64,000 bases of DNA from an uncultured Fibrobacterota bacterium (GCA_963753345.1 CAVWBU010000015.1:64001-128000); one strand, 5' to 3'; positions 2,733 to 58,480 are shown, counted from the stretch's first letter. Notes: generated by a model from the letters alone, not told the origin. Program-made: numbers and translations.

Positions 2733-3207
2733 GGGCGTTCCCCTCCCCCTCGACTTCGCTCGGGGTTGGGCCGGTCTCCCTCCGGGCTCGGCTTCTCGCC
2801 TCGTTGCCGCCTGCCACTAAGGCCCTTCGGGCCGTGGTCGGGCGGCGATGCGCTCTTGCTCACCCTCCGGTCCACCTAACGCGCGGCAACGAAATCTATT
2901 CTGTCAATCATTTCTTCTCGCGCCAGTCTTCAACTCTCAACTTTCAACTATTTTTCTCGGTGCGGCCACAACAATGCATGGTCTTGCACAAAGGGAAAAG
3001 TGAAAGTCACGTGATACCCGAAGAGTGGTATTTGCGCCAGGGGCGACTGGAGGTCGTGCTGGAGCACGATGCTGCCCGGACCCGCCGCAACGCGGCATAG
3101 GGCCGTGGCAGCCCGAGGCCTTGGCCGAGACCGGAAGGAGAACCGGTGCCGAAGGCAGGCGCCCAATTCTTTAACTGGGTTTTTGAGACAGCCTGAACTT
3201 CCCCCGC
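2733..3207. repeat. Structured repeat mosaic: A(-) 2733-2887, linker 2891-2928, TCAAC tandem 2929-2950, B-end fragment, A(+) 3034-3164, D tail 3165-3207
   Basis: Shares gggcgttccc...cctaacgcgcgg and ...ccggaaggagaaccg...ggcgccc blocks with about 15 other loci in the window. Confidence 0.9.
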
Positions 3208-3215
3208 AAAATGAG

Positions 3216-4301
3216 CTACTTCTTGATTTTCGAAGTGGTTCCAACCATAAACTCAACCTTCATCTCCACCGTGTTCGAGAAGAACGAAAGCTTGTCGTCC
3301 GGGTCGCTTCTGTCGGTATTGATATCCTTGTTGAGCACGAACCCCTTTTTTTCCCTGAAAAACCCCAGGTACCGCCCCACATAGCACACAGAAACCTCCA
3401 TACCCGAGGTTTTCGACAATGCGCGCTGGGACGAGATGCCGATTCTCCATCCGCCGCCGTACCCCCAGGCGTAGAAGTTCCTAAGGTTCGCCCTGGCCGC
3501 CACAATCACCGAATCCGGGACGCCGGACCAGGCGACCGAAGTCTGTTTTGACAGATAGGAATACGGCAGGATGTATGCGCCCACGATGACGGACGTGCGG
3601 TCCACGCCTTCTATGCGGAACAACTTTTCGTCAAGGCTGTGCCGATACAGCATGCCCACGTTGAAGGTGTAGGAATCGAGCGATTGCCGGTAGTTGACTT
3701 TCCCGGACGCGGTGTCGCGCTGGAGCGTGGCCTGGAGCACCTTGCCGATGTAACAGAAAGAGCCTTCGAACGACACCGAACTCTTGCGGTAGACGAGCGG
3801 GGTCCAGGAGACCGATATCGGGAAAAGGATGTTGTAGGTGTTCACGGGTTCCGTCACCGACATGCCGAACGTGTCCGGATTCATGGGCAGAATCTTCTGC
3901 ACCGAATCCGGGAGGTTGCTCTGCCAGTCGTTGAAAATGTCGAACGATCCCAGCGCCCAGCCGATGCCGAATCCTATCGAAGGAATCTTGAGGAAAAGGC
4001 TGGCGGTGTCTTCAACCGCAACAGCGGTTTTCCTCTGGAGCTGAAGCGCTGTCCTTTTCAGAAGAGAGTCGTTTGACAATGACGCCGGGTTCTTCTGCGT
4101 TGAATCGGAAACCTTAACAGCGGCAGGAGCGGTGGATGTGTCCTTTGACTGAAGAGATGCGGGCCTTTTGAGAGTGTCCGCAGGCGAGGGATTGACTTTG
4201 AGGGAATCACGGTCTGCGCAATACGCCTGCGTTGTACAGACAAAAGCCGCCGCAATGACGATCATCAACAAGGATTGATGAAAAGATGGCGAGTGGTTCA
4301 T
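3216..4301 (-). CDS. Hypothetical exported/outer-membrane protein
   Basis: ATG overlaps the tsaB stop (ATGA); hydrophobic signal-like N-terminus, low-complexity linker, beta-strand-rich C-terminal part. Confidence 0.65.
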   Translation of the reverse strand: MNHSPSFHQSLLMIVIAAAFVCTTQAYCADRDSLKVNPSPADTLKRPASLQSKDTSTAPAAVKVSDSTQKNPASLSNDSLLKRTALQLQRKTAVAVEDTASLFLKIPSIGFGIGWALGSFDIFNDWQSNLPDSVQKILPMNPDTFGMSVTEPVNTYNILFPISVSWTPLVYRKSSVSFEGSFCYIGKVLQATLQRDTASGKVNYRQSLDSYTFNVGMLYRHSLDEKLFRIEGVDRTSVIVGAYILPYSYLSKQTSVAWSGVPDSVIVAARANLRNFYAWGYGGGWRIGISSQRALSKTSGMEVSVCYVGRYLGFFREKKGFVLNKDINTDRSDPDDKLSFFSNTVEMKVEFMVGTTSKIKK

Positions 4302-4999
4302 GGTGTCGGTACCGTCCGTTTCTTTTCTGCCTGCACCTCGCTGAGGTAGCGCGGCACGATGTTTTCCGCAGTCGTCCATCCGGCGCTGTCGCCGTTGCGG
4401 AGGCCGGCAATCATGGCGCAAGAGAGCCCGCGCTGGAGCGGGAATCGTTCAACGGGAAATACCGAAGTCCTGCCTTTCAGAAAATCGAATGCCGTGCTTC
4501 TTGCATAGCCGAGCGTGTCCGTGATCACAATGTCGTTATTGGAAACGGCCTGCTTGAATTCCTCGACCGTGGAGAGAACGTCGTCCGAGAGGCGCGCCAT
4601 TGCGCCGCCGCATTTTTCGAACCTGGCCGAGAACACCTGGCCGTTGCGCGCGTCCGACGCGCACACGATGAGGGCGTCACGCGCGTGCCAGGCTCCCGCC
4701 ATGCTTTCCAGAGAGGAAACCGGCAGCACGCGGCCGTCGCGGCCGAAAAGAAAACCCTTGAGAAAAGCAATGCCGATGCGCAGGCCGGTAAACGAACCGG
4801 GCCCCACCGCGATTGCGGCATGAGAAATTTCCGAGGGTTTCACCTTGTTCGCGGCCAGAAGATAATCCACTGCCTGGCTGATGTGCTCGGCGTGCGAATT
4901 GCGCAGGTATCTCGACACCGCCATCACGGGACAGCCGTCCGAGGCGAGGCCGATGCCGAGCTCGATGGACGATGTGTCGATGCCGAGCGTGTGATTCAT
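4298..4999 (-). CDS. tsaB: tRNA threonylcarbamoyladenosine biosynthesis protein TsaB
   Basis: LGIDTSS, HAE and GPGSFTGLRIG motifs. Confidence 0.93.
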   Translation of the reverse strand: MNHTLGIDTSSIELGIGLASDGCPVMAVSRYLRNSHAEHISQAVDYLLAANKVKPSEISHAAIAVGPGSFTGLRIGIAFLKGFLFGRDGRVLPVSSLESMAGAWHARDALIVCASDARNGQVFSARFEKCGGAMARLSDDVLSTVEEFKQAVSNNDIVITDTLGYARSTAFDFLKGRTSVFPVERFPLQRGLSCAMIAGLRNGDSAGWTTAENIVPRYLSEVQAEKKRTVPTP

Positions 5000-5007
5000 G
5001 CTGGGTG

Positions 5008-6051
5008 TCAGGGCGTTATCGGGTTTTTGAGCGCGACCTGTATCATCAGGTCGATAAGCTGCCTGTACGTGCCTCCGGCCGCCTTGAAAGATTTGGGAAG
5101 CAGCGAATTGGCGGTGAGGCCCGGAAGCGAGTTGATCTCGAGAACGTACAGCGTTCCGTCTTGAGCGAGGATCATGTCGGTGCGCGACACGCCACGGCAC
5201 GAAAGAATCGCGTGGCATCGCAGAGCAAGGTCCTGGATCCGGTTGACAAGCTCCTTGCCGCGCCGGATGGGCACGATTTCCTCGGATCCGCCGTCATCGT
5301 ATTTCGCCTTGAAGTTGAAGTAATTGGCCTTGAGCGGCCGGATCTCTACGGGCGGAAGCGCCTTGACAGTGCCGTCCGGCATTTCGAGCACCGGACAGGT
5401 GAATTCCGGGCCCTTGATTCCTTTCTCTATGAGAATCTCCGGAGAATACTGGAGCATTTCCTCCATTTTGGTGCCGAGTCCGGCGCCGCAGTCCACGCGG
5501 GTCATGAGTCTGCTCGAACCGGACTGCGGGCACTTTACATACATGGGATAATCGAGCCTGTCTGCAAGGAAACGCCACGTCACTTCCGGATGGCCTCTCC
5601 CAGCGATGTAGAACGGGGGAGTCTTGATGTTGTTCTGTTCGAACATGAACTTGGTAGCGATTTTATTCATTGCCACTGCGCTTGCGAATACGCTCGACCC
5701 GGTGTAGGGGACCATGATGGTGTCGAGGTATCCCTGCAGCAGGCCGTCTTCCCCGAAGGAACCGTGCACGGCGAGAAAGGCGACGTCGCAGTTTTTCCAG
5801 ACCGCCTCGGACGCGTACGGCTTGAACGGCCCCTTAAAGCGCTTGCTTTTTGCGGGGTCGGCAAGCTCGTCTGTCGTGGGAAGATTCTTCGCAATATCGC
5901 AAAAGAAGAATTCCTGGTCTACGGAAATCACCACCGCTCTTGCAGAATATTTCCTGCGGTTAATGTTTTTGAGGACCTCGTGTCCGGACAACAGCGAGAT
6001 TTCGTGCTCGGCCGAAGGGCCGCCCATCACCACGTTTACGCGGAGAGGCAT
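5008..6051 (-). CDS. ddl: D-alanine--D-alanine ligase
   Basis: [19 protein letters not shown] and EINSLPG motifs. Confidence 0.93.
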
Positions 6052-7370
6052 AGGTTTGCTTCCTTTATTTTTTTAGCGATGACGTCGACGCATTGCGCGG
6101 CCGCGATGCGGTACTGCTGGCGTGAATCGCGCTCCCGCACCGTCACGGTGTCGTCCTGGATCGACTGGCCGTCCACCGTGATGCAGTAGGGGGTGCCTGC
6201 CTCGTCCTGGCGCGCATATCGGCGGCCGATCGCAGAATTAAGATCGAAAGAAGCCCGCACCGAATTGTCAAGCAGATCCTTGTATATCTTTTCCGCCTTT
6301 TCCGGCATGCCCTCCTTCTTCACAAGGGGGAGCACCGCCGCCTTGATGGGCGCGAGCGCCGGATGGAACCGCATGATCACCCGCTGGGCGTCCTCCTTGT
6401 CGACGTCGTACGCGTCGATGAGGAAGGCGAGCGTGGCGCGGTCCGCGCCGGCTGCCGGTTCGATCACGTAGGGGAAAATGTGCTGCTTGGACTCCTCGTC
6501 GAAATAGGAGAGGTCCCTGCCGCTGGACTCCGTGTGCCTTTTAAGGTCGAAATCGGTGCGGTTGGCGATGCCTTCCAGCTCGCTCCACCCGAACGGGAAC
6601 TGGTATTCCACGTCGGCACAAGCCTTGGCATAATGCGCAAGCTCGTCCTGCGCATGATCGCGCAGCCGGAGGTTGTCTTTCTTGATGCCGAGCCGAAGAT
6701 ACCACGAAAGCCTCGCGTTGCGCCAGTATTCGTACCACTCTGCGTCGGTGCCCGGCATGCAGAAGAACTCCATTTCCATTTGCTCGAACTCGCGCGTGCG
6801 GTAGGTGAAGTTGCCGGGCGTTATCTCGTTGCGGAAGCTTTTGCCGATCTGGGCGATGCCGAACGGCGGCTTGAGCCGCGCGGCCTGCTGGACATTGAGG
6901 AAATTTACGAAAATGCCCTGCGCAGTTTCCGGCCGCATGTACACGACCGCCGAAGAGTCTTCAACAGGGCCCATGAATGTTTTAAACATCAGGTTGAATT
7001 TCCGCACGCCGGTGAGCTCGCCGCCGCACTTGGGACATTTTGTGAGGTCGGTGAGGTGGTCGGCGCGGAACCGTTCCTTGCACGATTTGCAGTCGACAAG
7101 CGGGTCGGTGAAGCCAGCGAGATGGCCGGACGCTTCCCAGACCTTGGGATGCATGAGAATTGCCGCGTCGAGTCCCACGATGTCGCGGCGGTTGGTCACC
7201 ATGGACTTCCACCATGCCTCTTTGACGTTGCGCTTGAGCTCGACGCCGAGAGGGCCATAGTCCCAGCAGCTTGTCAGGCCGCCGTAGATCTCGCTTGACT
7301 GGAAAATAAATCCGCGTCTCTTGCACAAAGACACGATGGTTGTCATGAGGTCGGGAGCCTTTTGAGCCAT
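6036..7370 (-). CDS. glyQS: Glycine--tRNA ligase (alpha2 type)
   Basis: [35 protein letters not shown] and [14 protein letters not shown] motifs. Confidence 0.96.
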
Positions 7371-8486: not shown

Positions 8487-9110
8487 GGGCGTTCCCCCAT
8501 GTAGAGCTGTATCAAAATAATGCAAATTTGGTGGGGGAGGTGTCCCCCTGGCCCCAAGTCTCCTCGCCACGCTCCGCGCGTCTGCGGGGTCTTGGGGCAC
8601 ACCCCCTCGTGGGTAGCCCCCTATGGAGTTACTTTGCGAGAAAGAAGCCTAGGCTGCGGGGGCACCAAGAAACATTGTGGAATGATGATCGCAGAATGCG
8701 GAATAAGGCAGAAGAATGTCATTGCGAGCCCCTCGTCAGAGCTCGGGATAAACTCCGCGAAGCACCGTAACTAGGATCGCATACAATCCTAAAGGAGTAG
8801 CTGCGAAGCGAATCTACAGTTGATTCTTCAGAATATGAATTCCTTTTGACCTCTCCCCCAACCCCTCTCCGGACAGAGAGGAGAGTGACAGATGCGAAAG
8901 CCGTGCTGAGAGTTGGGCTGTGTCTTATGCGCCGCGCCAGGCCGGACTGCAAGGTGCGCCAGAGCGCATTGCCGGCCGACCCCGCCGCCAGGCATAGGGG
9001 CGGTTCGGCAACGAGGCCTTGGCCGAGCCTGGAAGGAGGGCCGCCGCCGTCTTCGGCGGGGCGCCCAAATCTTCTCTTGAGTTTTGAGACCGGCTGTGCT
9101 TCTCCCCCGA
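8487..9110. repeat. Structured repeat mosaic: A-end remnant 8487-8498, B 8530-8673, GTCATTGCGAG element 8717-8766, CCCCTCTCC element 8849-8885, A(+) 8931-9066, D tail 9067-9110
   Basis: Each block matches other copies in the window. Confidence 0.85.
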
Positions 9111-12149: not shown

Positions 12150-12476
12150 GGGCGTTCCCCAAAAGGAAAGGCGCATTCATATGTGCCTTTCCTTTTGGGT
12201 CGGTCTCCCTCCGGGCTCGGCTGTTCGCCTCGTTGCCGCCTGTCCCAACCGCCTTCGGCTAGGGATCAGGCGGCAATGCGCTCCAGCGCACCCTCCGGTC
12301 CACCTAACGCGCGGGCAGAGTGTGGGGTGCCGATGACCTTCCAATTCTGATTGACAAAGTATACTTTTTCAGGCGGAGCGCAGGCGTTGCGCCTCGCGCA
12401 GGTTGCGGCGCTTTTACAAACTTCTTAACTGCTCAACTTCTCAACCTCTCAACTTTCTTCTCGCGGTGCCCCCCCA
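12150..12476. repeat. Structured repeat mosaic: A(-) 12150-12316, C fragment ~12351-12411, CAAC tandem 12417-12456, GGTGCCCCC end
   Basis: gggcgttcccc...ggtccacctaacgcgcgg; gcgttgcgcctcgcgca is shared with the copy at 18752. Confidence 0.85.
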
Positions 12477-13293: not shown

Positions 13294-13312
13294 CTAAAAT
13301 AATAAATAAGAT

Positions 13313-13746
13313 GGGCGTTCCCTTGGCAGAGGCGCAAGATTTTTCGCCTCTGCCAAGGGCGGCCCTCGCTCCGGTCTCGGCCTTCGGCCTCGGGCGGCCT
13401 GCCACAAAGGCCCTGCGGGCCGTGGTCAGGCCGCACCGTGCTCCAGCGCGGCCTCCGTTCCGGCCTAACGCGGCGCAGAGGTTTGTTGGCCTGTCTGTTT
13501 TATTCTGCATCCGCCCTAACTTTTTGCAGGTTTTTAAACAGATTGGCGCGAGATGTGATATTGACAGAATAGACTTCAGTTGCCGCGCGTTAGGTGGACT
13601 GGAGGGTGAGCAAGAGCGAATTGCCGGCCGACCCCGGCCGAAGGCCCTCGGGGCGGTCCGGCAACGAGGCGAAAGCCGAGCCCGGAAGGAGACCGACCCC
13701 AGGTAGGAGGCGAACGGCCGTGCGCCTCTACTTGGGGAAACGTCCC
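13313..13746. repeat. Back-to-back A(-) 13313-13476, linker 13541-13577, A(+) 13582-13746
   Basis: Two divergent module A copies between lexA and dnaE2. Confidence 0.9.
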
Positions 13747-16945: not shown

Positions 16946-17251
16946 GTGGGGGAAGGCTCCCCCTCGCTTCGGCTCGGCGCTCGTATTTTCAAAGTTCATC
17001 TCATTCCGCGCCGGTCCTACGCTACCCCCTCGTGGGTAGCCCCCTAGAGAGTTGATTGGCAAGAATGAAACTTGGACTGCGGGGGCACCAAGAAAGAGAG
17101 TTGACAGTTGAAAGTTGGAGGCTGGCGCAAGAAATACCAATTAACTGAATAAATTACTCCTGCCGTGCGTTAGGCAGCCCGAGGCCGAAGGCCGAGACCG
17201 GAAGGACGGCCGACCCGACCCCGAGCTTAGTCGAGGGGAAGGGGAACGCCC
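16946..17251. repeat. Mosaic: B 16946-17098, GTTGA tandem 17100-17118, internally deleted A(+) 17162-17251
   Basis: gtgggggaagg...ccccctcgtgggtagcccc...gggggcacc, then gcgttaggcagcccgagg...gggaacgccc. Confidence 0.88.
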
Positions 17252-17283: not shown

Positions 17284-18489
17284 ATGAACTGGTATATAAG
17301 CATTTACATTCAGGATTTTCCGGCCCAAGCATACGCGGCGTATCACCCAGAAATAGTGGGCATGCCGTATGTGATGGCCCGTCAGCGGGCCGACAGCCAC
17401 AAGAGCGTGGTGACGTCGCTGTCGCCCGAGGCGCAGGCCAGGGGGATCTATCACGGGTTTTCGGTTGCGCGCCTTAAAGAACGCTTCGGCGACGTTCGTA
17501 TTGTACAGGAAGACCCATCGCTCGCGGCCGCAATCGCCGGCGATCTCGGCGCGGTACTGGCCGCGTTCTCGCCCGATGTGCGTGTGGACAAACGCGGAAA
17601 CGCTCTTGTCAACGTGAGCGGCATGCAGCGGCTTCTGGCGGCGCGGTTTGGAACGCTGCCCGGAGAAATCCGCGCCGCTGTGAAATCGGTACTGGCCCTG
17701 CGCGCCTGCGCATGCGGCGCGGCCGCGTCGCCGTACGTGGCGTTTATGGCCGCCCGCGCAGCCGCGCCCGACGGCGTTGTCGTATGCGAACAGGGCGCCG
17801 AGGCGGCCATGCTCGCGCCGGTCGCGGCAGCGGCCCTGCCCGGCCTTTCCGATGGCGTAAAGCAGCGGCTCGCCGATTACAATATACGCACGGTCGCCGA
17901 CATTCAACGGCTTTCCGAGGGTTTTTGTGCGGCCAGGTTCGGCGAGGAAGGCGTACGGCTGCACGCCATGGCGCACGGCATGTTCCTCGAAGCTCGGCCG
18001 CTGTCCGCCCCTCCTGACATCGAATACGGCCGCACGCTCGCGCGCGACGAGAACGACGCTGCCGCACTGAAGAGCCATATACGATACATTGCAGACAGGC
18101 TCGCGTTCGAGCTGCACGCGGCCCAAAAGCAGGCCGGCAGCGTGGCGTTTACGGTGCGCTATTCCGACAACAAGGCCGTGCGGCGCTCCATGAGGCTTTT
18201 GTCGCCCACGGCAGATTTCACCACGCTGTACGAATGCTGCTGCCGGCTGTTTGCGCAGGCCTGCGACCGTCGCATCGCGGTGCGGCGGCTGTCGGCGTCG
18301 GCGCGGCCGTTTGACGAACGCGAATGCCAGCTCGATCTGTTCGACAACGCGGCGCAGGTGAAGCAGGAGAACATCGGCAGGAGCATAGGGGAGATACGGG
18401 TGAGGATGGGGTTTGGGATTGTAAGAAATGGCAATATAGAATACAATGCCGTCGGGGGAGAGGTACAGCCTGTCTCAAAACCCAGTTGA
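17284..18489 (+). CDS. ImuB-like, probably catalytically inactive Y-family polymerase
   Basis: Y-family/IMS layout (SPEAQARGI, LPGL, little-finger VRYSD, QLDLF clamp motif), but the catalytic HIDMDAF and SxDE motifs are replaced by IYIQDFP and VDKRG. Confidence 0.8.
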   Translation: MNWYISIYIQDFPAQAYAAYHPEIVGMPYVMARQRADSHKSVVTSLSPEAQARGIYHGFSVARLKERFGDVRIVQEDPSLAAAIAGDLGAVLAAFSPDVRVDKRGNALVNVSGMQRLLAARFGTLPGEIRAAVKSVLALRACACGAAASPYVAFMAARAAAPDGVVVCEQGAEAAMLAPVAAAALPGLSDGVKQRLADYNIRTVADIQRLSEGFCAARFGEEGVRLHAMAHGMFLEARPLSAPPDIEYGRTLARDENDAAALKSHIRYIADRLAFELHAAQKQAGSVAFTVRYSDNKAVRRSMRLLSPTADFTTLYECCCRLFAQACDRRIAVRRLSASARPFDERECQLDLFDNAAQVKQENIGRSIGEIRVRMGFGIVRNGNIEYNAVGGEVQPVSKPS

Positions 18490-18863
18490 AGAGCTGGGCG
18501 CCTGCCTTCGGCACCGGTTCTCCTTCCGGTCTCGGCCGCAGGCCTCGGGCTGCCTGCCACGAAGGCCCTGCGGGCCGTGGTCAGGCAGCACCGCGCTTTG
18601 GCGCGGCCTCCAGTCGCCCCTGGCGCGCGGCAGAAGCGCATTACCGCAATTGTACTTGACGCTAGCGAAAGAGGGACAGTAAATTTTATCGCCGCAGAGC
18701 GGCATACCATAGCGAAGGCGTTGCGGAAACGTGACGCGCGCAATGCGCAAGCGTTGCGCCTCGCGCACGTTTCTGCTGGAAAGGGTGTGGGTGCAGATCG
18801 CCGCACGCCGTGTCGGCGGGCGGAAGCTGCACCCAGGGGAAACCGCGCAGCGGTGTCCCCACC
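18451..18863. repeat. Mosaic: D tail 18451-18495, A(-) 18496-18631, C(+) 18656-18863
   Basis: Same architecture as 54477-54916. The D tail overlaps the last codons of the ImuB-like gene. Confidence 0.88.
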
Positions 18864-18889
18864 AGATATTTTCACTAATATTGATTTCT

Positions 18890-21121: not shown

Positions 21122-21385
21122 AGTTGAAGCGTTGAAAAGTTGAAACGTTGAAAAGTTCTAAATTAAAAATAAAACGTCCCCCCTTGATTTATAGCGAATG
21201 CCGATTGGCGCGAGAAAAACTAATTGTCTAAAAGGGAGGCTATTGCCGCGCGCCAGGCAGGATCGGAAGGTGAGCTAAAGCGAATCGCTGGCCGACCCTC
21301 GCCGTGGGCGCTAAGGGCGGTCCAGCAACGAGGCCGTAGGCCGAGCCTGGAGGGAGGGCCGCCGCCGCGTAGCGGCGGGGCGCCC
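21122..21385 (+). repeat. Mosaic: (GTTGAANN)4 tandem, linker gattggcgcgaga, A(+) 21245-21385
   Basis: Matches other copies in the window. Confidence 0.88.
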
Positions 21386-35183: not shown

Positions 35184-35199
35184 ACCTTGATGATTTGAA

Positions 35200-36569: not shown

Positions 36570-36648
36570 GCCCGTGTATGTGGCATTTGTTTCTTGGCGC
36601 GCGTCAAATTTTGTCTTTTCAATAAAACTTTGCAAAATATAGCAATAT

Positions 36649-37083: not shown

Positions 37084-37669
37084 TATTGCCCCATTGTTTG
37101 AAATATCCGAAGTCAAGGATAAGTCCAATTGTTAACCCAGATTGATAAGGCTCCGTAAAACCAGTTGTGAATATTTCGAAAAATTCTCCGATTGCCATAA
37201 ATGGAAGGGGCGAAAACATGATATTGTCCCCAATCTTATAAACAGCCGAAGTCTTATTGAGTTCCAAATATCTATTGCTTTCAAGCCAAACACCTCGGTA
37301 AATACTATGGGCTATTCCGATACCGCCATAAACATCGAGCATGAACTTCCACCATTTCCATAATCTGCCATAACATGGCACCAATTCGTCATACAATTGG
37401 GTAGGCGTTACCGATACTTTGTGAAATGTATATGTCTCATCGGCGTGGGAATAAATGATCTTGATCAAATGTTTATGAATTGTACCGTTGAGTTCGAAAG
37501 AGAATCCTGTCATTGAACTGTCTTCCAGCAAGAGCATTTCCGAAACCTTGGAAGAAACCCAAATTGATGAAAAATCTTCGGAGGAATTGCATATGGAAAT
37601 CAACGAAAAGACAAAGATCAGAAATTCAATCATTACTTTCATTGAAATGACCTTGACATGCGCAAACAA
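37070..37669 (-). CDS. Hypothetical exported protein (AT-rich)
   Basis: 199-aa ORF with a signal-like segment and beta-strand-like C-terminus; start uncertain. Confidence 0.5.
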   Translation of the reverse strand: MFAHVKVISMKVMIEFLIFVFSLISICNSSEDFSSIWVSSKVSEMLLLEDSSMTGFSFELNGTIHKHLIKIIYSHADETYTFHKVSVTPTQLYDELVPCYGRLWKWWKFMLDVYGGIGIAHSIYRGVWLESNRYLELNKTSAVYKIGDNIMFSPLPFMAIGEFFEIFTTGFTEPYQSGLTIGLILDFGYFKQWGNNVQK

Positions 37670-37916
37670 AGATTTCTAATAACTGTGAAAATCAGCGCGC
37701 GTCTCTTCAATGCCACAAACATGGACACCAACTACAGGTATGTCGCGATTCCACATTCCACCCAAAATGGCTTCTTATCCTACTTATCGCCGATGGCAGT
37801 CATACAGTTGATAACAAAACAATTCATGCGTTCCCTGGAAGCAAGGACAATTGCAAAAGCGGACCCAGCGAAGAAAGTGACAAAGACATGAAGTAAGTAA
37901 GTGCATGGTGCCACCA

Positions 37917-38071
37917 CTCTTCGTGGGTGCCGCCTCAGCGATGTATGGTCTCGCAGCTGCTTTGCCAAGGCGGCTACCCAGGAGGGGGTAGCGGAGGACC
38001 GGCGCGTAAGAACCAACGAGCAGCGATTTGAGGGAGCGATGGGCCGGAGCGAGGGGGAGCCATCCCCCGAC
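37917..38071 (-). repeat. Module B copy, inverted near-twin of 34762-34916
   Basis: Reverse complement aligns end to end with the copy at 34762, with about a dozen substitutions. Confidence 0.92.
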
Positions 38072-38176
38072 GAACCTGTTTTTCTTTGATCAAACTCCGC
38101 TCTTTTCCCGTCCACCCCCTTTCCCATTCCAACCGCGCATGGCTTCTTGTATTTTCATAGTGAGGAACCACGCCCA

Positions 38177-39475: not shown

Positions 39476-39491
39476 CGGCGGGTCCACGGGC

Positions 39492-40451
39492 ATGAAGAAG
39501 AAAAAGACGAGGGTCGTGGACTGGGATCGGTTTTCGCTTGCGCAACTGTGCAAACGGATCATCTCCCTCGATGTTCCGTTTGGTGAGCTTGCGGAATCCC
39601 TGCAAAACAAGACGTATGCCCTGTGCGTGGAAGGAAAATGCAGGAGCGCAACGCGCGAACTTGGCCGCATGGTTGAATTCTTCGAGACCAGGCAGGGCAA
39701 GAGCGAGGATGAGCGCCGTGATCTGGCGGACATCTGCATTCTGATTGGCGAAGTGAACCAGTATATCGGAGCGTTCAAACAGAGCATCAAATGGTTCTGG
39801 AGGGCGGCTGCGGCGTTCGGAGGCTATGCCATGCCCTTCCATAACCTTGCCACGTCGTTTATGGAGCTCGGCGACATCAAAAACGCGATTGCAAGCCTCG
39901 AACGGGAAACAGCGCTCGAACCGGGAAATTATTTTTCCCGGTTGCGGCTCGCCGATTTGTACGAACGCAGGGGCGAGGCGAATAAAGTCGAAAAGTGCCT
40001 CGAAAGCCTGCTTCAGCGAAACCCGGACAACATCCAGGCGCTTCACAGGCTCATTTCGCATTACGAACAACAGAAACCGGCAATAAACGTGAAGCTCCTC
40101 AGGCGCCGGCTCCTGTCGGTGAGCAGGAAGTTCAGCGAGATGGAAATGGTGATCGTGGTCTACCACCTGTGCAGGGAAGAACAGTTTGACAAGGCCCTGC
40201 GTTTCCTTGACGTCAAGCTGGGCGAGAATCCGGCAATGACCATGCTGTACCTTCTCAAGGCGCACGTGTTCGGGCGGTTGCACCGGTTCTCCATGAAACG
40301 CCGGGAGCTGGCCCAGTTTAAACGCCGCTGCTGGGGAAAACCCGAGTACATGCAGAGCAAACTTGACGAATTCGAACACGTGTTCGGGAAAAAGGCGGTG
40401 GAAAATCTGGGGAAGATATTGATGGTGACAAATCCGAATATAAATAACTAA
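39492..40451 (+). CDS. TPR-containing protein
   Basis: TPR-like repeats (PFHNLATSFMELGDIKNAIASLE...LEPGN). Confidence 0.78.
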   Translation: MKKKKTRVVDWDRFSLAQLCKRIISLDVPFGELAESLQNKTYALCVEGKCRSATRELGRMVEFFETRQGKSEDERRDLADICILIGEVNQYIGAFKQSIKWFWRAAAAFGGYAMPFHNLATSFMELGDIKNAIASLERETALEPGNYFSRLRLADLYERRGEANKVEKCLESLLQRNPDNIQALHRLISHYEQQKPAINVKLLRRRLLSVSRKFSEMEMVIVVYHLCREEQFDKALRFLDVKLGENPAMTMLYLLKAHVFGRLHRFSMKRRELAQFKRRCWGKPEYMQSKLDEFEHVFGKKAVENLGKILMVTNPNINN

Positions 40452-40467
40452 ACAATTAGTTTTCTTA

Positions 40468-40983
40468 GTGGGGGAGGTATCCCCCTCGCTCCGGTCCGGT
40501 CGCGCTGTTTGTAAATCACCATCCAGAATGTGCGCGCCCGGTCCTCCGCTACCCCCCTCCTGGGTGGCCCCCAAGTAAGTTTGTTTGCAAGAAAGTTGCT
40601 TCGGTTGGGGGGCACCCACGGAGAGCAGTTGAAAAGAAAAAGCGTTGAAAAGTTGGAAAGCCAATGCCCGAAAACAGGACATGGGAAACCAAGTGTCATT
40701 GCGAGCGCAGCGAAGCAATCACCCTACAACTTTTACCTAAAAGAACCTTGTCTGATTTGCTGCGCATGCCGATTGGCGCAATAAATATGAATTGACAGAA
40801 TAGATTCCCTCTGCCGCGCGCTAGGGGCGACTGGAGGTCCCGCCATAGCGGGATGCCGCCCGGGCCCGCCGCTGCTGCGGCATAGGGCCGGGGCGGGCCC
40901 GAGGCCGCAGGCCGACGACCCTTGGAAGCACCCGAAGGGGTGGACCGGAAGGAGAACCGACCCCGCAAAGCGGGGGAACGCCC
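40468..40983. repeat. Mosaic: B 40468-40626, GTTGA tandem, GTCATTGCGAG element 40694-40720, linker, A(+) 40813-40983
   Basis: Matches other copies; this A carries an extra ccc-gaa-ggg hairpin insertion. Confidence 0.9.
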
Positions 40984-41012
40984 AATTCTTATAACTAAAA
41001 GAAACCAAAATA

Positions 41013-42485
41013 ATGTCATCACCTATTCGCGTCAGATTTGCTCCATCACCCACAGGATACCTCCATGTGGGCGGGGCGAGGACCGCGCTGTTCAATTACC
41101 TTTTTGCAAAGCACAGCGGCGGGACGTTTATTCTCCGGATCGAAGACACCGACCGGTCCCGTTTCGTCGAAGGCGCACTCAGGGAAATCTACGACGGTCC
41201 TGCATGGCTCGGCCTTTCGTGGGACGAGGGGCCGGATGTGGGCGGCAATTTCGGCCCCTATGTCCAATCGGAGCGCCTCGACCTCTATCAGAAATACGCG
41301 GGAGATCTTCTGGACAGGGGTTTGGCCTACCGTTGCTTCTGCACCCCGCAGCGTCTCGAAGAGGTGAGGCGTGACCGCGAAAAGGCAAAGATGCTTACCG
41401 GGTATGATCGGCATTGCCGCGACCTAGACAAAGAGGAAGTCGCAAACAGCCTGAAGGAAGGGAAGAAGTACACGGTCAGGCTTAAGGTTCCCCTGGACAG
41501 AAACATTGTGTTTAGCGACATGATAAGGGGGTCCATAGAATACAAAAGCGATGTGCTCGACGACCTTGTTCTCCTCAAGTCGGACGGGTTTCCCACCTAC
41601 CATCTCGCAAACGTGGTTGACGATCACGAAATGAAAATATCGCATGTGCTGCGCGGCGACGAGTGGATTTCGTCAACGCCGCGCCACATCCTGCTGTACG
41701 AGGCATTCGGATGGACGCCGCCCGCGTTCGCGCACATGCCCGTGATACTCGACCCGTCCGGTGGAAAACTGTCAAAACGCAAGGGCGCGGCGTCGGTGAC
41801 GGATTACCGGAACAGGGGCATCCTGCCGGAGGCGCTGTTCAATTTTCTGGCGCTGCTCGGCTGGTCGCCGGGCGGCGGCGACGAGCGCGAGAAAATGACG
41901 CGCCAGGAAATCATCGAGGCATTCGCGCTCGACAAGATTTCTCCCAAGGCCGCGGTGCTCGACGAAAAGAAGCTCGACTGGATGAACGGACGGTACATGG
42001 CCGAATATCCCGCTGAGCGGCTTGTTGCTGATGTCTGCAGGCTGTGGAAGGAAAAGCAGACCATTGCCCCGGACAGGAGCGAAAGCGACCCGTACCTGCT
42101 CGCCGTGGTGCGAATGTTCAAGGACAGGTCAAAGCGCATTAACGAAATCGCTGATAATTCAGTGTATTTTTTTCACGATCCGGCGACATATGAGGAAAAG
42201 GCAGCCACGAAACATTTCACATTGCAGGCGGCAGAAATTCTGGAAATGTTGGCTGATAAGATAGCTGTGCTTGAACCCTATTCCAAGGATTCGCTTGATG
42301 CTCTTATTCATGCTTGCGCTTCTGATACGGGTTCACAGATAGGAGATCTTATTCATCCGACAAGACTGGCCGTGAGCGGCGTGAGTTTTGGACCGGGGTT
42401 GTTTGAGATGATGGAAACTATAGGTAAAGAAACTGTGGTGAGGAGAATAAGAAAGGCAATTGATAAAATAAGAAAGAAAGATTGA
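41013..42485 (+). CDS. gltX: Glutamate--tRNA ligase
   Basis: RFAPSPTGYLHVGG (HIGH), LRIEDTD and KLSKR motifs. Confidence 0.97.
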   Translation: MSSPIRVRFAPSPTGYLHVGGARTALFNYLFAKHSGGTFILRIEDTDRSRFVEGALREIYDGPAWLGLSWDEGPDVGGNFGPYVQSERLDLYQKYAGDLLDRGLAYRCFCTPQRLEEVRRDREKAKMLTGYDRHCRDLDKEEVANSLKEGKKYTVRLKVPLDRNIVFSDMIRGSIEYKSDVLDDLVLLKSDGFPTYHLANVVDDHEMKISHVLRGDEWISSTPRHILLYEAFGWTPPAFAHMPVILDPSGGKLSKRKGAASVTDYRNRGILPEALFNFLALLGWSPGGGDEREKMTRQEIIEAFALDKISPKAAVLDEKKLDWMNGRYMAEYPAERLVADVCRLWKEKQTIAPDRSESDPYLLAVVRMFKDRSKRINEIADNSVYFFHDPATYEEKAATKHFTLQAAEILEMLADKIAVLEPYSKDSLDALIHACASDTGSQIGDLIHPTRLAVSGVSFGPGLFEMMETIGKETVVRRIRKAIDKIRKKD

Positions 42486-42488
42486 TTT

Positions 42489-42835
42489 GGTGGGGGAAGT
42501 TTCCCCCTGCCTGCGGCCCTACGGTCCTCCGGCACCCCCTCGTGGGTGGCCCCCAAGGAAGTTGATTTGCAAGAAAGATGCCTCGGTTGGGGGGCACCCA
42601 CGAAGAGCGGCTGTAGTTAATAATCAAATGACAAGAGGTTAATTCCCTCTTTGTAAGGAAAGCGGGGAAAACCTTCTGTCCGCGCGTTAGGGGCGACTGG
42701 AGGTCCCGCTGAGGCGGGATGCCGCCCGGACCCGGCCCTGTGGGCCATAGGGCCGTGGCGGCCCGAGGGCGGAGCCCGAGACCGGAAGGAGAACCGACCC
42801 GAGCCCGAGCGCAAGCACGGGCGAGGGGAACGCCC
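42489..42835. repeat. Mosaic: B 42489-42608, A(+) 42679-42835
   Basis: Begins 4 nt after the gltX stop. Confidence 0.9.
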
Positions 42836-42876
42836 AGTCTTTCTTACTATACCAAAAAGGAAAAAGAGAGAACATC

Positions 42877-44590
42877 ATGACAGAAGAAAAAGTAAATCAG
42901 ATTGCACCAGAATCCGAAAAACCCGCAAACTTCATCCGCGAGATCATCGCGCAGGACCTCGCATCGGGCAAGGTGAAGAAAGTGGTAACGAGGTTCCCGC
43001 CCGAGCCCAACGGCTATCTGCACATCGGACACGCCAAGGCCATAAGCATAGATTTCGGAATGGCCATGGAATTCGGCGGCGAATGCCACCTACGCTACGA
43101 CGACACCAACCCGAGCAAGGAAGACCAGGAATATGTGGACGCCATCCAGCAGGACGTACGGTGGCTCGGCTACGACTGGGGAAAGCACCTCTATTATGCG
43201 TCCGATTACTTCCAGCAGATGTACGAGTGGGCGGTGCACATGATAAAGGCCGGCACGGCATACGTGTGCGACCTTTCTGCCGACCAGATGCGCGAGTACC
43301 GGGGCACGCTTACGCAGCCGGGAAAAGAAAGCCCGTATCGCAACCGCACCGTAGTGGAGAACCTCGATCTGTTCGAGCGCATGCGCAAAGGGGAGTTTCC
43401 GGACGGCTCCCGTACCCTCCGGGCAAAAATAGACATGGCATCGCCGAACCTTAACATGCGCGACCCCGCCATGTACCGCATCGTCAAGAAACCCCATCAT
43501 CGCCAGGGCGATGCATGGTGCATCTATCCAATGTACGACTGGGCCCAGGGCAACGAGGACGCCATAGAAGGGCGTCACGCATTCCCTCTGTTCGCTCGAA
43601 TTCGAGAACCACCGGCCGCTGTACGACTGGTTCTTAAAACATGCGCCGGTGCCGTGCATTCCCCAGCAGCGGGAGTTCGCGCGTCTCAATCTCACCTATA
43701 CCGTCATGAGCAAGCGCAAACTGCTCCAGCTGGTGGAGGAGAAATATGTAAGCGGCTGGGACGATCCGCGCATGCCGACGATATGCGGCATGCGGCGGCG
43801 CGGGTACGCGCCCGAGGCGATCCGCGCGTTCTGCGAAAAAATCGGCGTTGCCAAACGCGACAGCATGGTCGAGGTTGCCCTGCTAGAGCATTGCGTGCGC
43901 GAAGATCTCAACAGGCGTACGCCGCGTGCCATGGCCGTGCTGCATCCGCTCAAGGTCGTCATCGACAATTATGCGGACGGTAAAACCGAAGAGCTTGACG
44001 CGGTGAACAATCCCGAGGACCCTTCGATGGGGAGCAGGAAGGTTCCGTTCTCGAAAGTGCTTTACATCGAGAAAGAAGATTTCATGCTCGATCCGCCCAA
44101 GAAATTCTTCCGTCTTTCACCCGGCAGGGAAGTGCGGCTTCGGTATGCGTATTTCATCACCTGCACGTCGGTGGAAAAGGATGCCGCGGGTACGGTGACC
44201 GCCGTGCACTGCACTTACGACCCCGCCACGCGGGGCGGTGCCGCGCCCGACGGCCGCTCGCCAAAGTCAACCATGCACTGGGTTTCGGCGCAGCATTCGG
44301 TCTCCGCGGCAATCCGGCTCTACGACTATCTCCTGACAAAGGAAAACCCGGCGGACGTCGCCGAGGGCATGGATTTCAAATCGCTCATCAATCCGCAGTC
44401 GCTCGTCGCGGTGAACGACGCCCGTCTGGAGCCGGCGCTCGCGCATGCAATGCCGGGCGACAGATTCCAGTTCGAGCGGGTGGGATATTTCTGCGCGGAT
44501 ACGGTCGACTCAAAACCGGGGAAACCGGTGTTCAATAGGACGGTGTCGCTGAAGGATACGTGGGCGAAGATACAGAAGAAGCAGAAGTGA
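42877..44590 (+). CDS. glnS: Glutamine--tRNA ligase, with a +1 frameshift at GGG 43570-43572 (likely read error)
   Basis: [22 protein letters not shown] and FQFERVGYF motifs. Deleting one G restores [24 protein letters not shown]. Confidence 0.93.
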
Positions 44591-44606
44591 AATTCCACAT
44601 AAAATA

Positions 44607-44650
44607 AAAATCCCGTTTCCCTGCCTTTGCAAGTGGAAACGGGATCTTTT
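44607..44650. terminator. Probable bidirectional intrinsic terminator
   Basis: atcccgtttcc/ggaaacgggat stem flanked by A and T runs, between convergent genes. Confidence 0.65.
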
Positions 44651-44683
44651 ATCGGAAACCGCAACCTTCCGGTAAGGCTCTGC

Positions 44684-44989
44684 TTACCAGCGTCCGCCGC
44701 CGCCTCCTCCTCCGAACCCGCCTTTGCCGCGTCCGCCTTCCGGCTTTGGACGGGCCTCATTGACGGTGAGCGCGCGGCCTTCGAGCTCTTTGCCGTTCAT
44801 GGCTGCGATGGCTGCCTGTGCTTCCTGGTCCGAACCCATTTCCACGAAGCCGAACCCCTTTGACCTACCAGAGTCCCGGTCGGTGATGACCTTGGCCGAG
44901 GCTACTGTCCCGAACCCTGCGAACATTTCCTGCAGCGAGCTGTCGCTAACGCTGTAGGGCAGGTTGCCTACATACAACTTGTTACCCAT
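44684..44989 (-). CDS. RRM RNA-binding protein with Gly-rich tail
   Basis: KLYVGNL (RNP2) and KGFGFVEM (RNP1). Confidence 0.95.
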   Translation of the reverse strand: MGNKLYVGNLPYSVSDSSLQEMFAGFGTVASAKVITDRDSGRSKGFGFVEMGSDQEAQAAIAAMNGKELEGRALTVNEARPKPEGGRGKGGFGGGGGGGRW

Positions 44990-45150
44990 CGAAACACTCC
45001 TTTAGGGCAGATGGTGACACTGTACGGTTGCCACGGCGATGACTCACCGTGCAACCGCTTTCGTTGATAATATAGTTTCCTCGCGAAGGTAAAGCACTTT
45101 TTTTGATTTTTAGGTGGTTTTTCGGAAATCCGGGTCCGGCGGTTCCGGAT

Positions 45151-54357: not shown

Positions 54358-54476
54358 GGGAAGCTCCTGCTATGGTTATTAATTTATGTATGATGTGAAT
54401 TGTTGGCGGAAGTATTTTTGAAAACGTGATAAAATACATGAAAGCGGGATAAAGAGCCTAAGAGGAGAGTATTTAA

Positions 54477-54916
54477 GTGGGGGGAGGTACAGCCTGTCTC
54501 AAAACTCAAGAGAAGATCTGGGCGCCCCGCCGAAGACGGCGTCGGTTCTCCTTCCGGTCTCGGCTAAGGCCTCGGGTTGCCGACGGCCCTAGTCGCCCAC
54601 AGGCGAGGGTCGGGCGGCATCGCGCTCTGGCGCGACCTCCAGTCGCCCCTGGCGCGTGCGCAGACGACCGGAGCTTGATTGAATATTTGCAACTGTTTTT
54701 AGGTAGGATAGTTGACAAAAGCGAATGCACCTTAATTCGCTATCGCCGCGAAGCGGCATACCGCAGAGGTTGCGTTGCGAAGGGGCGACGCCGCGCGAGC
54801 GCAAGTCGAGCGCACCAGACGCGCCCCTTTGCTGGAGGGGGTGTGCCCCGAGACCCCGCAGACCGCAGGGCGAGGAGGCTTGGGGCCAGGGGGAAACGCG
54901 AAGCGGTGCCCCCACC
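54477..54916. repeat. Mosaic: D tail 54477-54519, A(-) 54520-54661, C(+) 54711-54916
   Basis: Same architecture as 18451-18863. Confidence 0.9.
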
Positions 54917-57338: not shown

Positions 57339-57600
57339 GGGCGACAGTTAAAATAACATTTAATGGAAACGCCGAACTACTCTTTTTTGAGAATGGAGAT
57401 CGCAAAGGCGGTGTCTGTGCGCTCCGGAATTCAATGCGGTGATGCGTCGCGGGTGGAAATCGTCCCGTCGGGCTTGTGCCGGTTCACCGCCGCGGGCTTT
57501 GACATGGATAAGAGCAACAACATATATTTGGACATTCCGGAATTGAAGAACCCCGCAACCAGCTTCGAGAAGTCGCTCGCTGTGGGATTCGCCCTGAGCA

Positions 57601-58284
57601 ATGCCGCACCCCGAAAAACACCTTGTTATCGCCATCGACGGCCCGGCCGGTTCAGGCAAGAGCTCGACCGCGAAGCTCGTGGCGCAGCGTCTGGGCATAC
57701 TCCATCTTGACACGGGCGCGATGTACAGGGCCGTGACCCTCAAGTGTCTGAGACGCGGCATACCGCACGGCGACCACGGCGCGATTGCCGAGCTTGTGAG
57801 TAACACCGGGATCTCATTCACCGGCGCGCCTGCCGCGATGCGCGTGCTGATGGACGGCGAGGACGTGACAAGCGCGATCCGCAGCGACGAGGTTACCAAG
57901 AACGTTTCGGACTACTGCACCGTGCCGGCGGTGAGGAAGGTGCTGGTGGACCTTCAGCGGAAGATCGGCAAAGGCGGGTCTCTTGTTTGTGAAGGACGCG
58001 ACATCGGCACCGTCGTTTTTCCGAAGGCGCGCCTGAAGTTCTTTATGGTCGCGTCCGACGAGGAGCGGGCCAGAAGACGTCAAAAAGACTTCGCGGCGAT
58101 GGGAATAAAGAAAAGTCTTGATGAGCTTGTTGACGAAATCCGCGCGCGCGACCACAAGGATTCGAGCAGGGAGAACAGCCCACTGTGCAAGGCGGATGAT
58201 GCAGAAGAAATAGACACGACGAATATGACGCTAGACCAACAGGTGAAATACATAGTTGACAAGGCAAGAAAATTGATTGAGTAA
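57601..58284 (+). CDS. cmk: Cytidylate kinase (possible N-terminal extension from 57363)
   Basis: IAIDGPAGSGKS, LDTGAMYRA and EGRDIGTVVFP motifs. Confidence 0.95.
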   Translation: MPHPEKHLVIAIDGPAGSGKSSTAKLVAQRLGILHLDTGAMYRAVTLKCLRRGIPHGDHGAIAELVSNTGISFTGAPAAMRVLMDGEDVTSAIRSDEVTKNVSDYCTVPAVRKVLVDLQRKIGKGGSLVCEGRDIGTVVFPKARLKFFMVASDEERARRRQKDFAAMGIKKSLDELVDEIRARDHKDSSRENSPLCKADDAEEIDTTNMTLDQQVKYIVDKARKLIE

Positions 58285-58301
58285 AAACAGCAGTAGTTAT
58301 T

Positions 58302-58480
58302 TTGCGCAAAAAATGTTTCTTGACTGAATAGAGTTCCGTTTGCGCGCGTTAGGCGGACTGGAGTGGTGCGCTGGAGCGCAGTACCGCCTGATCCCTAGCC
58401 GAAGGCGGTAGGGACAGAGCGGTACCGAGGCCTTGGCCGAGCCCGGAAGGAGGCCGACCCCGCGAAGCGGGGGAACGCCC
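58302..58480 (+). repeat. Linker fragment plus A(+) 58342-58480, inside the cmk-rpsA spacer
   Basis: ttgactgaatagagttcc...gcgcgcgttaggcgg...ccccgcgaagcgggggaacgccc. Confidence 0.9.

Follow-up and report, generated by a model that had tools for sequence, protein, structure and literature searches.

Among the dispersed repeats described in bacteria, bcr1 of the Bacillus cereus group is an element of about 155 bp that lies scattered in intergenic spacers, at sites that are not conserved between relatives (Delihas 2011, PMC3184786). As outlined in that source, compensatory changes keep a multi-stem fold in bcr1, some copies have lost stability, and the element is flanked by 5-bp direct repeats and is transcribed (PMC3184786). 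Here we describe Module A, a branched structured repeat with 17 copies in a window of 64,000 nucleotides (the whole stretch of DNA analyzed; GCA_963753345.1, CAVWBU010000015.1:64001-128000, that is, contig C15 of genome G000) from an uncultured Fibrobacterota bacterium, whose assembly comprises 4.52 Mb in 55 contigs and is 94% complete with 4.8% contamination. Compared by description only, Module A resembles bcr1 in its size, its dispersal in spacers, its unconserved sites, its compensated fold and the presence of destabilized copies. It differs in that bcr1 is a cruciform of two stem-loops, whereas Module A has eight helices and two junctions and belongs to another phylum, and in that no counterpart of the 5-bp direct repeats of bcr1 was found at the borders of Module A.

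The REP and BIME sequences of Enterobacteria are summarized in the same source as GC-rich, folded spacer repeats that occur in hundreds of copies, favor convergent gene ends, form mosaics and show none of the marks of miniature inverted-repeat transposable elements (MITEs) (PMC3184786), and most REPs are described as carrying a GTAG or CGTC head (PMC3733652). Module A is likewise GC-rich, present in hundreds of copies, found in excess between convergent genes and part of a mosaic, which it forms with a second repeat (module B), arrays of GTTGA units and a conserved 5' stretch (the P extension). However, a REP is a single imperfect palindrome of 20–40 nt, whereas Module A is 136–171 nt long, has eight helices and two junctions and lacks a GTAG or CGTC head, in agreement with the first-pass annotation of this stretch, which had called the element much longer and more branched than REPs. 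A further difference is that REPINs are moved by the REP-associated Y1 protein (RAYT), which was not found in this genome.

The pneumococcal BOX, RUP and SPRITE repeats and the Correia elements of Neisseria are outlined as modular or terminator-like sequences that can carry promoters and end up in the transcripts of their neighbors (PMC3184786). Their likeness to Module A lies in its mosaic of module B, array, P extension and Module A and in the T-rich tail that follows. By contrast, Correia and RUP elements have inverted ends and target duplications, and no target duplication was found for Module A; nor, in the descriptions compared, is any of these repeats reported to have a two-junction fold that is kept across an order.

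The right ends of IS200/IS605 insertion sequences (ISs), together with their gene-less derivatives, have a strand-specific fold, give no target duplication and have a sharp end beside the structured segment, and the orientation of these ends follows the replication or gene strand. Module A is also strand-specific with a sharp 3' end, has no target duplication that we could find and has an orientation that follows the replication or gene strand. In contrast to these elements, Y1 and TnpB were not found here, the Rfam models of the RNAs associated with them had no match, and Module A was not seen beside any such gene.

Module A therefore shares the way of life of bcr1, REP and BIME sequences, yet it departs from REPINs in its size and in the RAYT, from MITEs in target duplication and a partner IS, and from bcr1 in the direct repeats. 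It is a new family, whose fold is more complex and is kept over a wider span than in those known repeats. We consider it probable, though far from certain, that it is a new and unusually complex structured dispersed repeat of the REP/BIME/bcr1 kind, selfish in nature, in which the fold and not the sequence is preserved.

Copies, fold and covariation of Module A

Direct reading of the sequence and a hidden Markov model (HMM) search placed a Module A copy at each of the 17 positions, and on each of the strands, that the first-pass annotation had listed in the window. Fifteen copies were full (136–171 nt), one was internally deleted and one was 5'-truncated. The HMM, which was built from 16 copies, matched exactly those 17 places and none besides; this search was circular for its 16 seed copies, and the copy at 31093, which lay outside the seed, was found with E=9e-5. 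A covariance model (R1), built from seven copies with a structure drawn by hand, recovered the other nine full or deleted copies in the window at E≤5.6e-8, missed the truncated copy at 31093 and gave a sole extra match at chance level (11.4 bits, E 0.91). The consensus order of segments and the four hairpin 1 sequences quoted in the annotation were directly legible in the copies. Its size estimate of about 140–170 nt was close for Module A itself but slightly short for the element, as approximately two thirds of the copies are extended on the 5' side by some 45 conserved nucleotides and most have a tail that consists of an A and then a T-rich stretch.

The RNAalifold consensus of 296 distinct copies from the genome was a nested structure of eight helices and two junctions. 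The closing stem P1 (GCGYY/RRCGC, with a variable pair that is UA in 206 copies and CG in 87), the short stem P2 (GGN/N'CC) and a hypervariable hairpin, P8, which is placed between the 3' strands of P2 and P1, make a three-way junction. P3 (CY/RG; UA in 152 copies, CG in 130) gives way to a symmetric purine loop, GGA/GGA, and then to P4 (GG/CC), which leads to a four-way junction bearing the hairpins P5, P6 and P7. P5 has 6 bp and a tetraloop, P6 is a long bulged hairpin, and P7 is composed of a C-G pair, a tandem G.A and GGC/GCC. The purine-rich junctions of the first-pass annotation are the internal loops and junction strands of this fold, and its Y and R positions are long-range base pairs, with the Y of gaCYggagg pairing with the R of ggaRgga (P3) and the YY of gcgYYagg with the RR of ggRRcgccc (P1). 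A tRNA-like reading of the ...CGCCC-A end was considered and dropped, as no T-loop or D-loop motifs were seen in the copies.

When the window copies were fitted to R1, 94.3% of cells were pairing, compared with 81.9% after shuffling and 33–44% when partners were slid. Two-sided change was present in 19 of 36 pairs, and there were 69 compensated cells versus 22.8±3.4 in shuffles, none of 500 of which was as high. A wider alignment (A4), composed of 53 copies from nine genomes in four families, gave 92.8% pairing cells (69.2% shuffled, 33–41% slid), two-sided change in 32 of the 36 pairs, 337 compensated cells versus 86.4±8.1 (0 of 500 shuffles as high) and a covariation score of 0.443, versus 0.129 shuffled and at most 0.071 slid; these alignments were fitted to the model and hence lean towards it, but the margins are nonetheless large. 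The GGA/GGA loop and the tandem G.A beside P7 were strictly conserved across the four families despite changes in the helices. Distant copies retained the closing stem through new pairs (GCGCA/UGCGC and GCGUG/CACGC), and distant copies such as those of L007 and L005 folded unaided into the same shape. The proposal that the stems vary in compensating pairs while the purine junctions are kept was borne out by these data, and they support selection on the Module A fold at the level of the family. The evidence for the fold comes from covariation, because single sequences surpassed their shuffles only modestly in folding energy (sense strand, z of -1.5 to -3.6; antisense strand, z of -0.06 to -3.0).

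The non-canonical cells within the 36 pairs were unevenly distributed, with 41 G.U versus 17 A.C and 85 purine-purine versus 19 pyrimidine-pyrimidine, and one P5 pair was G.U in 118 of the 296 copies and C.A in four. In addition, the lower folding energy was on the sense strand in 86 of 120 copies. The mismatch bias and the energies together identify the selected fold as that of the sense strand in single-stranded form; this evidence fits RNA as well as DNA and does not tell them apart. C-GNA-G triloops are exceptionally stable in DNA, and they accounted for 230 of the 379 triloops in the 296 folded copies. Tetraloops numbered 545 in the same copies, 84 of them GNRA and one UNCG.

A search of the whole 64 kb window against Rfam (release 15) gave no match at gathering thresholds, and a search at E≤10 of positions 32850–33340 gave only chance matches to miRNA and snoRNA families, far below those thresholds. 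These results, together with literature searches in which no description of Module A was found, agree with the initial impression that it belongs to no known RNA family.

Copy number, relatives and the turnover of sites

The genome-wide count suggested in the first-pass annotation gave 410 HMM matches to Module A, distributed over 49 contigs with 211 on the plus and 199 on the minus strand, which total 57,046 bases or 1.26% of the 4.52 Mb genome. Both ends were present in 350 of the 410 matches, and 296 of the 307 full-size copies were distinct sequences, with a median identity to the nearest neighbor of 91%. All 150 candidates that were scored with R1 matched it. A separate observation on this assembly was that several small contigs duplicate genes of larger ones at ≥70% protein identity (C4 and C5 versus C16; C9 and C33 versus C32; C50 and C51 versus C8), which is likely to reflect assembly redundancy or strain variants, in line with the 4.8% contamination.

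Forty relatives were searched with R1, a model biased to this genus, so that counts for distant families are lower bounds. Many copies were present in four of five congeners, and no copy was present in the congener G003, which is 99% complete and for which 150 candidates were scored at E≤0.1. Three other families of the order had weaker, full-length matches (15 in G018, six in G033, three in G012 and one in G032, all lower bounds), and these copies had the same ends and junction motifs and were likewise multi-copy. In a sample of 150 other genomes from the phylum, R1 matched 12 of 71 genomes of families f1–f9 (a lower bound) and none of the 79 genomes of families f10–f19. A 15-base pattern searched over all species gave several matches only in records titled Chitinivibrionales or Fibrobacterota; this pattern is too loose to be used alone, and its single matches in many phyla were at chance level. 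Viral contigs gave no match to a 17-base subtype pattern, one that covers only two of the 17 window copies. The distribution of Module A is patchy and limited to certain lineages within a single order of Fibrobacterota, with the records that carry it titled Chitinivibrionales.

The clearest view of individual sites came from the genes carB, pyrG, purF and ychF, whose three spacers in this genome are all filled and measure 360–480 nt. The same three spacers contained no copy in G004 (whose pyrG DNA is 88.5% identical), G005 or G003 and one copy in G002, and those measured in G003 (two) and G005 (all three) were about 70–100 nt long. The G002 copy belonged to a unit of module B, array, P extension and Module A beside a putative IS, and it differed from the copy here in its deletion and its P8. 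Approximately 210 kb of further related DNA from G002, G004 and G005 held seven copies, none at a clearly shared site. Copies in other species were 79–96% identical to the nearest copy here, compared with 78–88% for pyrG DNA, and the spacers were unalignable. As the copies are as alike as coding DNA, or more so, the sequence lineages change slowly while the sites turn over.

Three observations on these congeners are recorded here in their own right. In the carB-pyrG spacer of G002 (L019, approximately 4830–6150, minus strand), a long ORF (open reading frame) lies beside the unit with the internally deleted Module A, and it is, as judged by eye, a putative DDE-type IS transposase. The pyrG-purF spacer of G004 (L017, 7080–7290) contains a different repeat with the inverted ends TTCACCGCAAAGGCGCAAAGG ... 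CTCTGCGCCTTTGTGGTGAG. G003 (e.g., L018, 5493–5599 and 7183–7256) has no Module A copies and no matches to Y1, Y2, IS110 or reverse transcriptase (RT).

Whether selection acts on each copy was addressed with a terminal-branch test, in which changes private to a copy were counted for 161 copies that have two neighbors at ≥85% identity. Private changes numbered 387 over 6,991 unpaired sites, a rate of 0.055 per site, compared with 441 over 14,289 paired sites, a rate of 0.031. Single changes within pairs broke the pair in 231 cases and kept it in 94, and the kept fraction, 0.289, was effectively that expected under neutrality from the spectrum at unpaired sites (0.291), so that single changes show no preference for keeping pairs. 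Broken copies also exist, namely those at 17162 (deleted) and 31093 (truncated) and one in G002. Selection therefore seems to act on propagating lineages and not clearly on each copy. This runs counter to the first-pass annotation, which had placed selection on the fold in each copy; neutral breaking of pairs, the broken copies and sites that are mostly unshared with congeners all speak against that view. Of its two alternatives, a functional or a self-propagating element, the latter fits better, and function at each locus fits less well with the terminal-branch test and the turnover of sites.

Flanking modules and the copies in the window

The P extension occupies positions -45 to -6 relative to Module A, is conserved in about two thirds of copies and has the consensus TTGGCGCGAGAA..ATTGACnGAATAGATTTC..T. 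An HMM for it had 234 matches in the genome, with Module A directly after 225 of these and remnants or contig ends after the other nine. Because the P extension nearly always directly precedes Module A, it belongs to the element and is no general signal. A second structured repeat, module B, is also GC-rich, has an opening hairpin GGGGGAAG..TCCCCC and includes CGCTACCCCCTCCTGGGT and GCGGGGGCACC; its core was found 211 times in the genome and was followed by a same-strand Module A within 500 nt downstream in 154 cases. Between module B and the P extension there are tandem arrays of an 8-nt unit, RGTTGANN (e.g., GTTGAAAA GTTGAAAC GTTGAACA), which are possibly protein-binding sites. Among 342 copies of Module A, the P extension was present in 218, the core of module B in 161, three or more GTTGA units in 125, and none of these in 102.

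On the 3' side, similarity between copies ends sharply at CGCCC|A, with A present in 94% of copies, followed by a T-rich stretch of about 18 nt in which most positions between +3 and +12 are T in 50–82% of copies. This tail starts 3–4 nt past the 5-bp closing stem and not past a simple hairpin. The 5' limit of similarity is spread over several places between -5 and -300. Copies with the CC class of closing stem share an extra downstream module, ...CTTGAGTTTTGAGACAGGCTG...CCCCC, which in the window is found at 3165–3210, 9067–9110, 18450–18495 (minus strand) and 54475–54519 (minus strand).

Five full copies in the window belong to the CC class, and all five were found by both R1 and the HMM: 3029–3164 (plus; 136 nt, no P extension; R1 136.3 bits), 8929–9066 (plus; 138 nt; 79.4 bits), 18496–18631 (minus; 136 nt; 122.3 bits; with the stop of gene 17284–18489 lying 7 nt beyond its 3' end), 21245–21385 (plus; 141 nt; 72.5 bits), which is preceded by a P extension at 21205–21244 (plus), read directly, and 54520–54660 (minus; 141 nt; 112.5 bits).

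The other full copies were likewise found by R1 and the HMM. The first, at 2733–2887 (minus; 155 nt; 96.2 bits), is separated at its 3' end by 50 nt from the stop of the convergent gene 1658–2683, and its P extension of about 40 nt (CTGGCGCGAGAAGAA..TTGACAGAATAGA; 2888–2927, minus) is preceded by GTTGA 8-mer units at 2928–2953 (minus), both read directly. The copy at 12150–12315 (minus; 166 nt; 90.5 bits) has a long variable hairpin P8. Copies at 13313–13476 (minus; 164 nt; 131.7 bits) and 13582–13745 (plus; 164 nt; 62.4 bits) are arranged head-to-head, the latter with a P extension at 13543–13581 (plus) that was read directly. The copy at 25597–25753 (minus; 157 nt; 158.9 bits) ends 8 nt from the stop of gene 24600–25589.

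Between pyrG and purF, the copy at 33105–33257 (plus; 153 nt; 78.1 bits) is the 3' module of a complete unit, in which module B (32867–32983, plus) starts 17 nt past the pyrG stop and is followed by a GTTGA array (32986–33025, plus) and a P extension (33065–33104, plus), the last two read directly. Further along, the copy at 35025–35183 (plus; 159 nt; 145.4 bits), with a P extension at 34985–35024 (plus), ends 17 nt short of the stop of the convergent gene 35200–36270. The copy at 40813–40983 (plus; 171 nt; 74.6 bits) has an extra 27-nt hairpin after P7, a P extension at 40773–40812 (plus) and a start codon 30 nt downstream, at 41013. The copy at 42679–42835 (plus) is 157 nt long (147.6 bits), and that at 58341–58480 (plus; 140 nt; 75 bits) has a diverged P extension (TTGCGCAAAAAA..TTGACTGAATAGA; 58302–58340, plus) and a start 78 nt downstream, at 58558; the P extensions at 34985, 40773 and 58302 were also read directly.

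The two defective copies are those at 17162 and 31093. The internally deleted copy at 17162–17251 (plus; 90 nt; R1 45.4 bits, alignment and HMM) is without helices P3–P6 and follows a directly read P extension at 17122–17161 (plus). The 5'-truncated copy, at about 31093–31170 (plus; nhmmer E 9e-5), lies between carB and pyrG; it retains the 3' half of P6, P7, P8 and the 3' end and is fused to a partial P extension.

ORFs of 100–240 codons cross Module A copies on either strand, among them 13311–13706 (plus), 2231–2875 (minus) and 18159–18875 (minus). These ORFs are by-products of the GC-rich repeat and are not to be annotated as genes.

Proposed mode of spread, rival explanations and significance

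We propose that Module A may be the constant 3' module of a non-coding, non-autonomous family of dispersed repeats. The fold, the purine-rich junctions and the 3' end ...CGCCC-A would be what a trans-acting enzyme recognizes, and this enzyme would copy the element into new AT-rich spacers beside gene ends. Lineages that keep the fold would go on multiplying, while single copies would then drift, break and be deleted. Spread could take place by DNA-level copying through a folded single strand, as for REP/RAYT or the ends of IS200/IS605. The data show the copies, the fold and its strand, the limited and patchy occurrence and the turnover of sites, and from these we infer mobility itself, a single-stranded DNA intermediate and the existence of a mover. 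Copying at the DNA level is favored because no RT was found in two copy-rich genomes, no target duplication was detected, similarity between copies stops abruptly at the 3' end and C-GNA-G triloops predominate at the hairpin tips. RNA-mediated spread would need an RT; the RVT_1 family was not found in G000, G003 or G005, of which G000 and G005 are copy-rich, so that an RNA route is not visible. The same fold may matter in transcripts too. After insertion, Module A units are probably co-transcribed with neighboring genes and may influence them.

The search for target duplications compared the flanks of each copy, over lengths of 2–12 nt, at 342 core borders and 156 borders of the joined P extension and Module A, and found the flanks of a copy to be no more alike than randomly paired ones, although this comparison could miss the duplication of a target sequence that is always the same. 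Flank 9-mers were shared in 34 copies, versus 20.5±4 expected, without positional clustering. The lack of a detected duplication, and of a partner transposase, is consistent with the earlier statement that the element is not a decaying IS end.

Several results weigh against the proposed selfish repeat, and the first concern its mover. The first-pass annotation had pointed to a possible HUH/RAYT, TnpA, RT or nuclease gene flanked by the element, and no mover was found. Y1 (PF01797) was found neither in this 94%-complete genome nor in G003, no Module A lies within 1.5 kb of the Y1 genes that G002 (eight), G004 (two) and G005 (two, weak) possess, and TnpB was not found in any of five genomes. Y2/IS91 genes numbered one in G000, six in G002, two in G004 and none in G003 or G005, and IS110 genes one in G000, two in G002, one in G005 and none in G003 or G004; the single Y2/IS91 and IS110 genes of G000 have no Module A within 1.5 kb. 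Among all the Y1, Y2/IS91 and IS110 genes counted here, the sole adjacency within 1.5 kb, a copy 180 nt downstream of the G005 IS110 gene, was taken as chance given the density of copies. No protein family has more than five members in this genome, and those that approach this reflect the duplicated small contigs. Among candidates that were rejected, four for an autonomous form (module B, gene, Module A) were ordinary genes (isocitrate/isopropylmalate dehydrogenase, pseudouridine synthase and two surface-type proteins), and an attC-like reading was dropped, as the order of the GTT and AAC motifs was reversed relative to that of attC sites and one third of copies were without the motifs.

The other points against the proposal concern history and function. 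No insertion event was caught directly, the spacers of congeners are too diverged for base-by-base empty sites, and very young copies are few, as indicated by the median identity and the number of distinct sequences given above. Double changes within pairs were kept in 48 cases and broken in seven, an excess of compensation far beyond chance that could mean selection in place, and the terminal-branch test is noisy, with single-sequence folds recovering the closing stem in just 95 of 296 copies; selection on propagating lineages would explain the compensated doubles and the slower paired sites equally well. The constant company of the P extension with Module A and the T-rich tail after most copies also look functional, as does the association of the P extension with nearby gene starts described below.

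These last features lead to the most serious alternative, which we regard as unlikely, that Module A is a cis-acting RNA unit that can be carried from locus to locus and is maintained at each by selection. On this view the P extension would be a promoter or start signal, Module A a very stable leader or 3' untranslated structure that protects or insulates transcripts, and the tail a terminator in front of a convergent gene; the units would have spread once and now be punctuation between genes. The fold, the P extension and the T-rich tail do share the sense strand, and the P extension is always attached to Module A. Gene context, which depends on the calls of a crude ORF-scoring caller, provides further points for this alternative. 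The P extension was commoner in copies with a co-oriented start <100 nt downstream (60 of 76) than beside a convergent stop (80 of 140; odds ratio 2.8, p 0.0016, on these crude calls). Eight window copies end 22–78 nt upstream of a co-oriented start, a gap too close for a separate promoter. Of the 174 copies that face a convergent gene, 104 had their 3' end ≤40 nt from its stop, and the upstream gene was co-oriented in 217 of 342 copies and opposite in 125. In addition, pyrG and purF, which are essential, are preceded by such units at places where the spacers of congeners are tight, so that the units cannot simply block expression.

Against a cis-acting RNA stands, first, the form of the supposed signals. 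Upstream of many tRNA genes, TAnnTT(T)-like boxes are visible by eye at 10–25 nt, some with TTGACA 17–18 nt earlier, and these boxes give a putative working promoter pattern for this organism, TTGACA-N17-TAnnTT, from which the P extension departs, with its TTGAC and TAGATT just 5 nt apart. Consensus scans of positions 30000–45000 gave no excess over shuffles of either promoters (6 versus 7.0 expected) or terminators (17 versus 18.5), and only one of five Module A copies there, that at 42679, was flagged in the terminator scan, through a local alternative hairpin. Second, the downstream gene was co-oriented for 169 copies and opposite for 180, about half of the copies face the 3' end of a gene, 57 lie between divergent genes, and 32 of 350 overlap a gene call by >30 nt. 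The genes concerned are unrelated, in both orientations, and the same spacers in congeners are without the element, which does not fit a riboswitch or a gene-specific leader. Third, a 99%-complete congener lives without the element, sites are mostly unshared and single changes break pairs neutrally. The closeness of copies to gene ends is to be expected in any case when a unit of 300–500 nt lands in a spacer of 70–100 nt. Copy orientation was associated with GC skew (odds ratio 2.0–4.7) in the same direction as that of genes (1.9), and because the direction is shared, skew cannot separate replication-linked from transcription-linked explanations.

Less probable still is that Module A encodes an RNA that acts in trans or as a catalyst, with hundreds of gene copies expressed; candidates would be a small RNA, a ribozyme that cleaves itself, or an RNA that guides or partners an unrecognized recombinase or nuclease. 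This would accord with a strand-specific, junction-rich fold whose purine loops are strictly kept across four families, with a candidate unit that is self-contained (P extension, Module A and tail) and with the lack of a match to known RNA families. However, no protein gene keeps company with the element, TnpB was not found and the Rfam models of HEARO/IscB-type RNAs were unmatched. Such a gene does not need hundreds of diverged, partly broken copies, and a congener is without it. The scarcity of GNRA and UNCG tetraloops beside the dominant C-GNA-G triloops, and folding energies only modestly beyond those of shuffles on either strand, also argue against an RNA of this kind.

A related and similarly doubtful idea is that the P extension, Module A and tail form a mobile RNA gene, in which the eight-helix RNA itself would work in spread, as a ribozyme or as a guide or partner RNA of an unrecognized recombinase. 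If so, it might be comparable in kind to bridge and omega RNAs, but detached from a protein gene and multiplied hundreds of times. The idea accords with a fold that shares its strand with the P extension and tail, a P extension that never occurs without Module A, junction purines that are conserved order-wide and the lack of any known mover.

We give even less credence to a strict REPIN-like element, moved as single-stranded DNA by a RAYT. Module A is intergenic, GC-rich and of high copy number, and 106 of 341 copies (31%) lie in convergent spacers, versus 17.5% of all spacers. There are also 30 head-to-head pairs at a fixed spacing, mostly 111–120 nt, and a strand-specific fold without target duplication, all of which a REPIN would share. 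Yet PF01797 had no match in this genome or in G003, and the Y1 genes of G002, G004 and G005 have no Module A nearby. The element is also four to five times the length of a REP and branched, and just 60 of its approximately 400 copies are head-to-head.

Finally, it is highly improbable that Module A is a conventional MITE or the decayed end of an IS that a DDE transposase mobilizes through terminal inverted repeats. Its size would fit, putative DDE-type IS copies occur in congeners and the start of the P extension (TTGGCGCG) is similar to the 3' end when the latter is read as its reverse complement (TTGGGCG), a possible imperfect inverted repeat of 7 nt, but no target duplication of 2–12 nt was found at either kind of border, no multi-copy transposase was found here, conservation extends upstream of the putative left repeat, and covariation across an order indicates a fold and not end sequences.

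Knowledge of structured dispersed repeats comes from a few cultured groups (REP/BIME, bcr1, BOX, Correia), and the purpose of their folds has long been open. Module A is an unusually clean case, with approximately 400 copies, a two-junction fold that is constant across families, a close relative that is clean and none of the usual movers found. For annotators, the GC-rich stretches of Module A are a warning, as they give spurious ORFs. For the organism, the repeat explains spacers that are several times longer here than in the congener G003, and G003 is a natural clean control for the effect of these repeats on a genome. The family also makes testable whether RNA or single-stranded DNA is the carrier of the selected fold, and whether there is a gene family that tracks the element.

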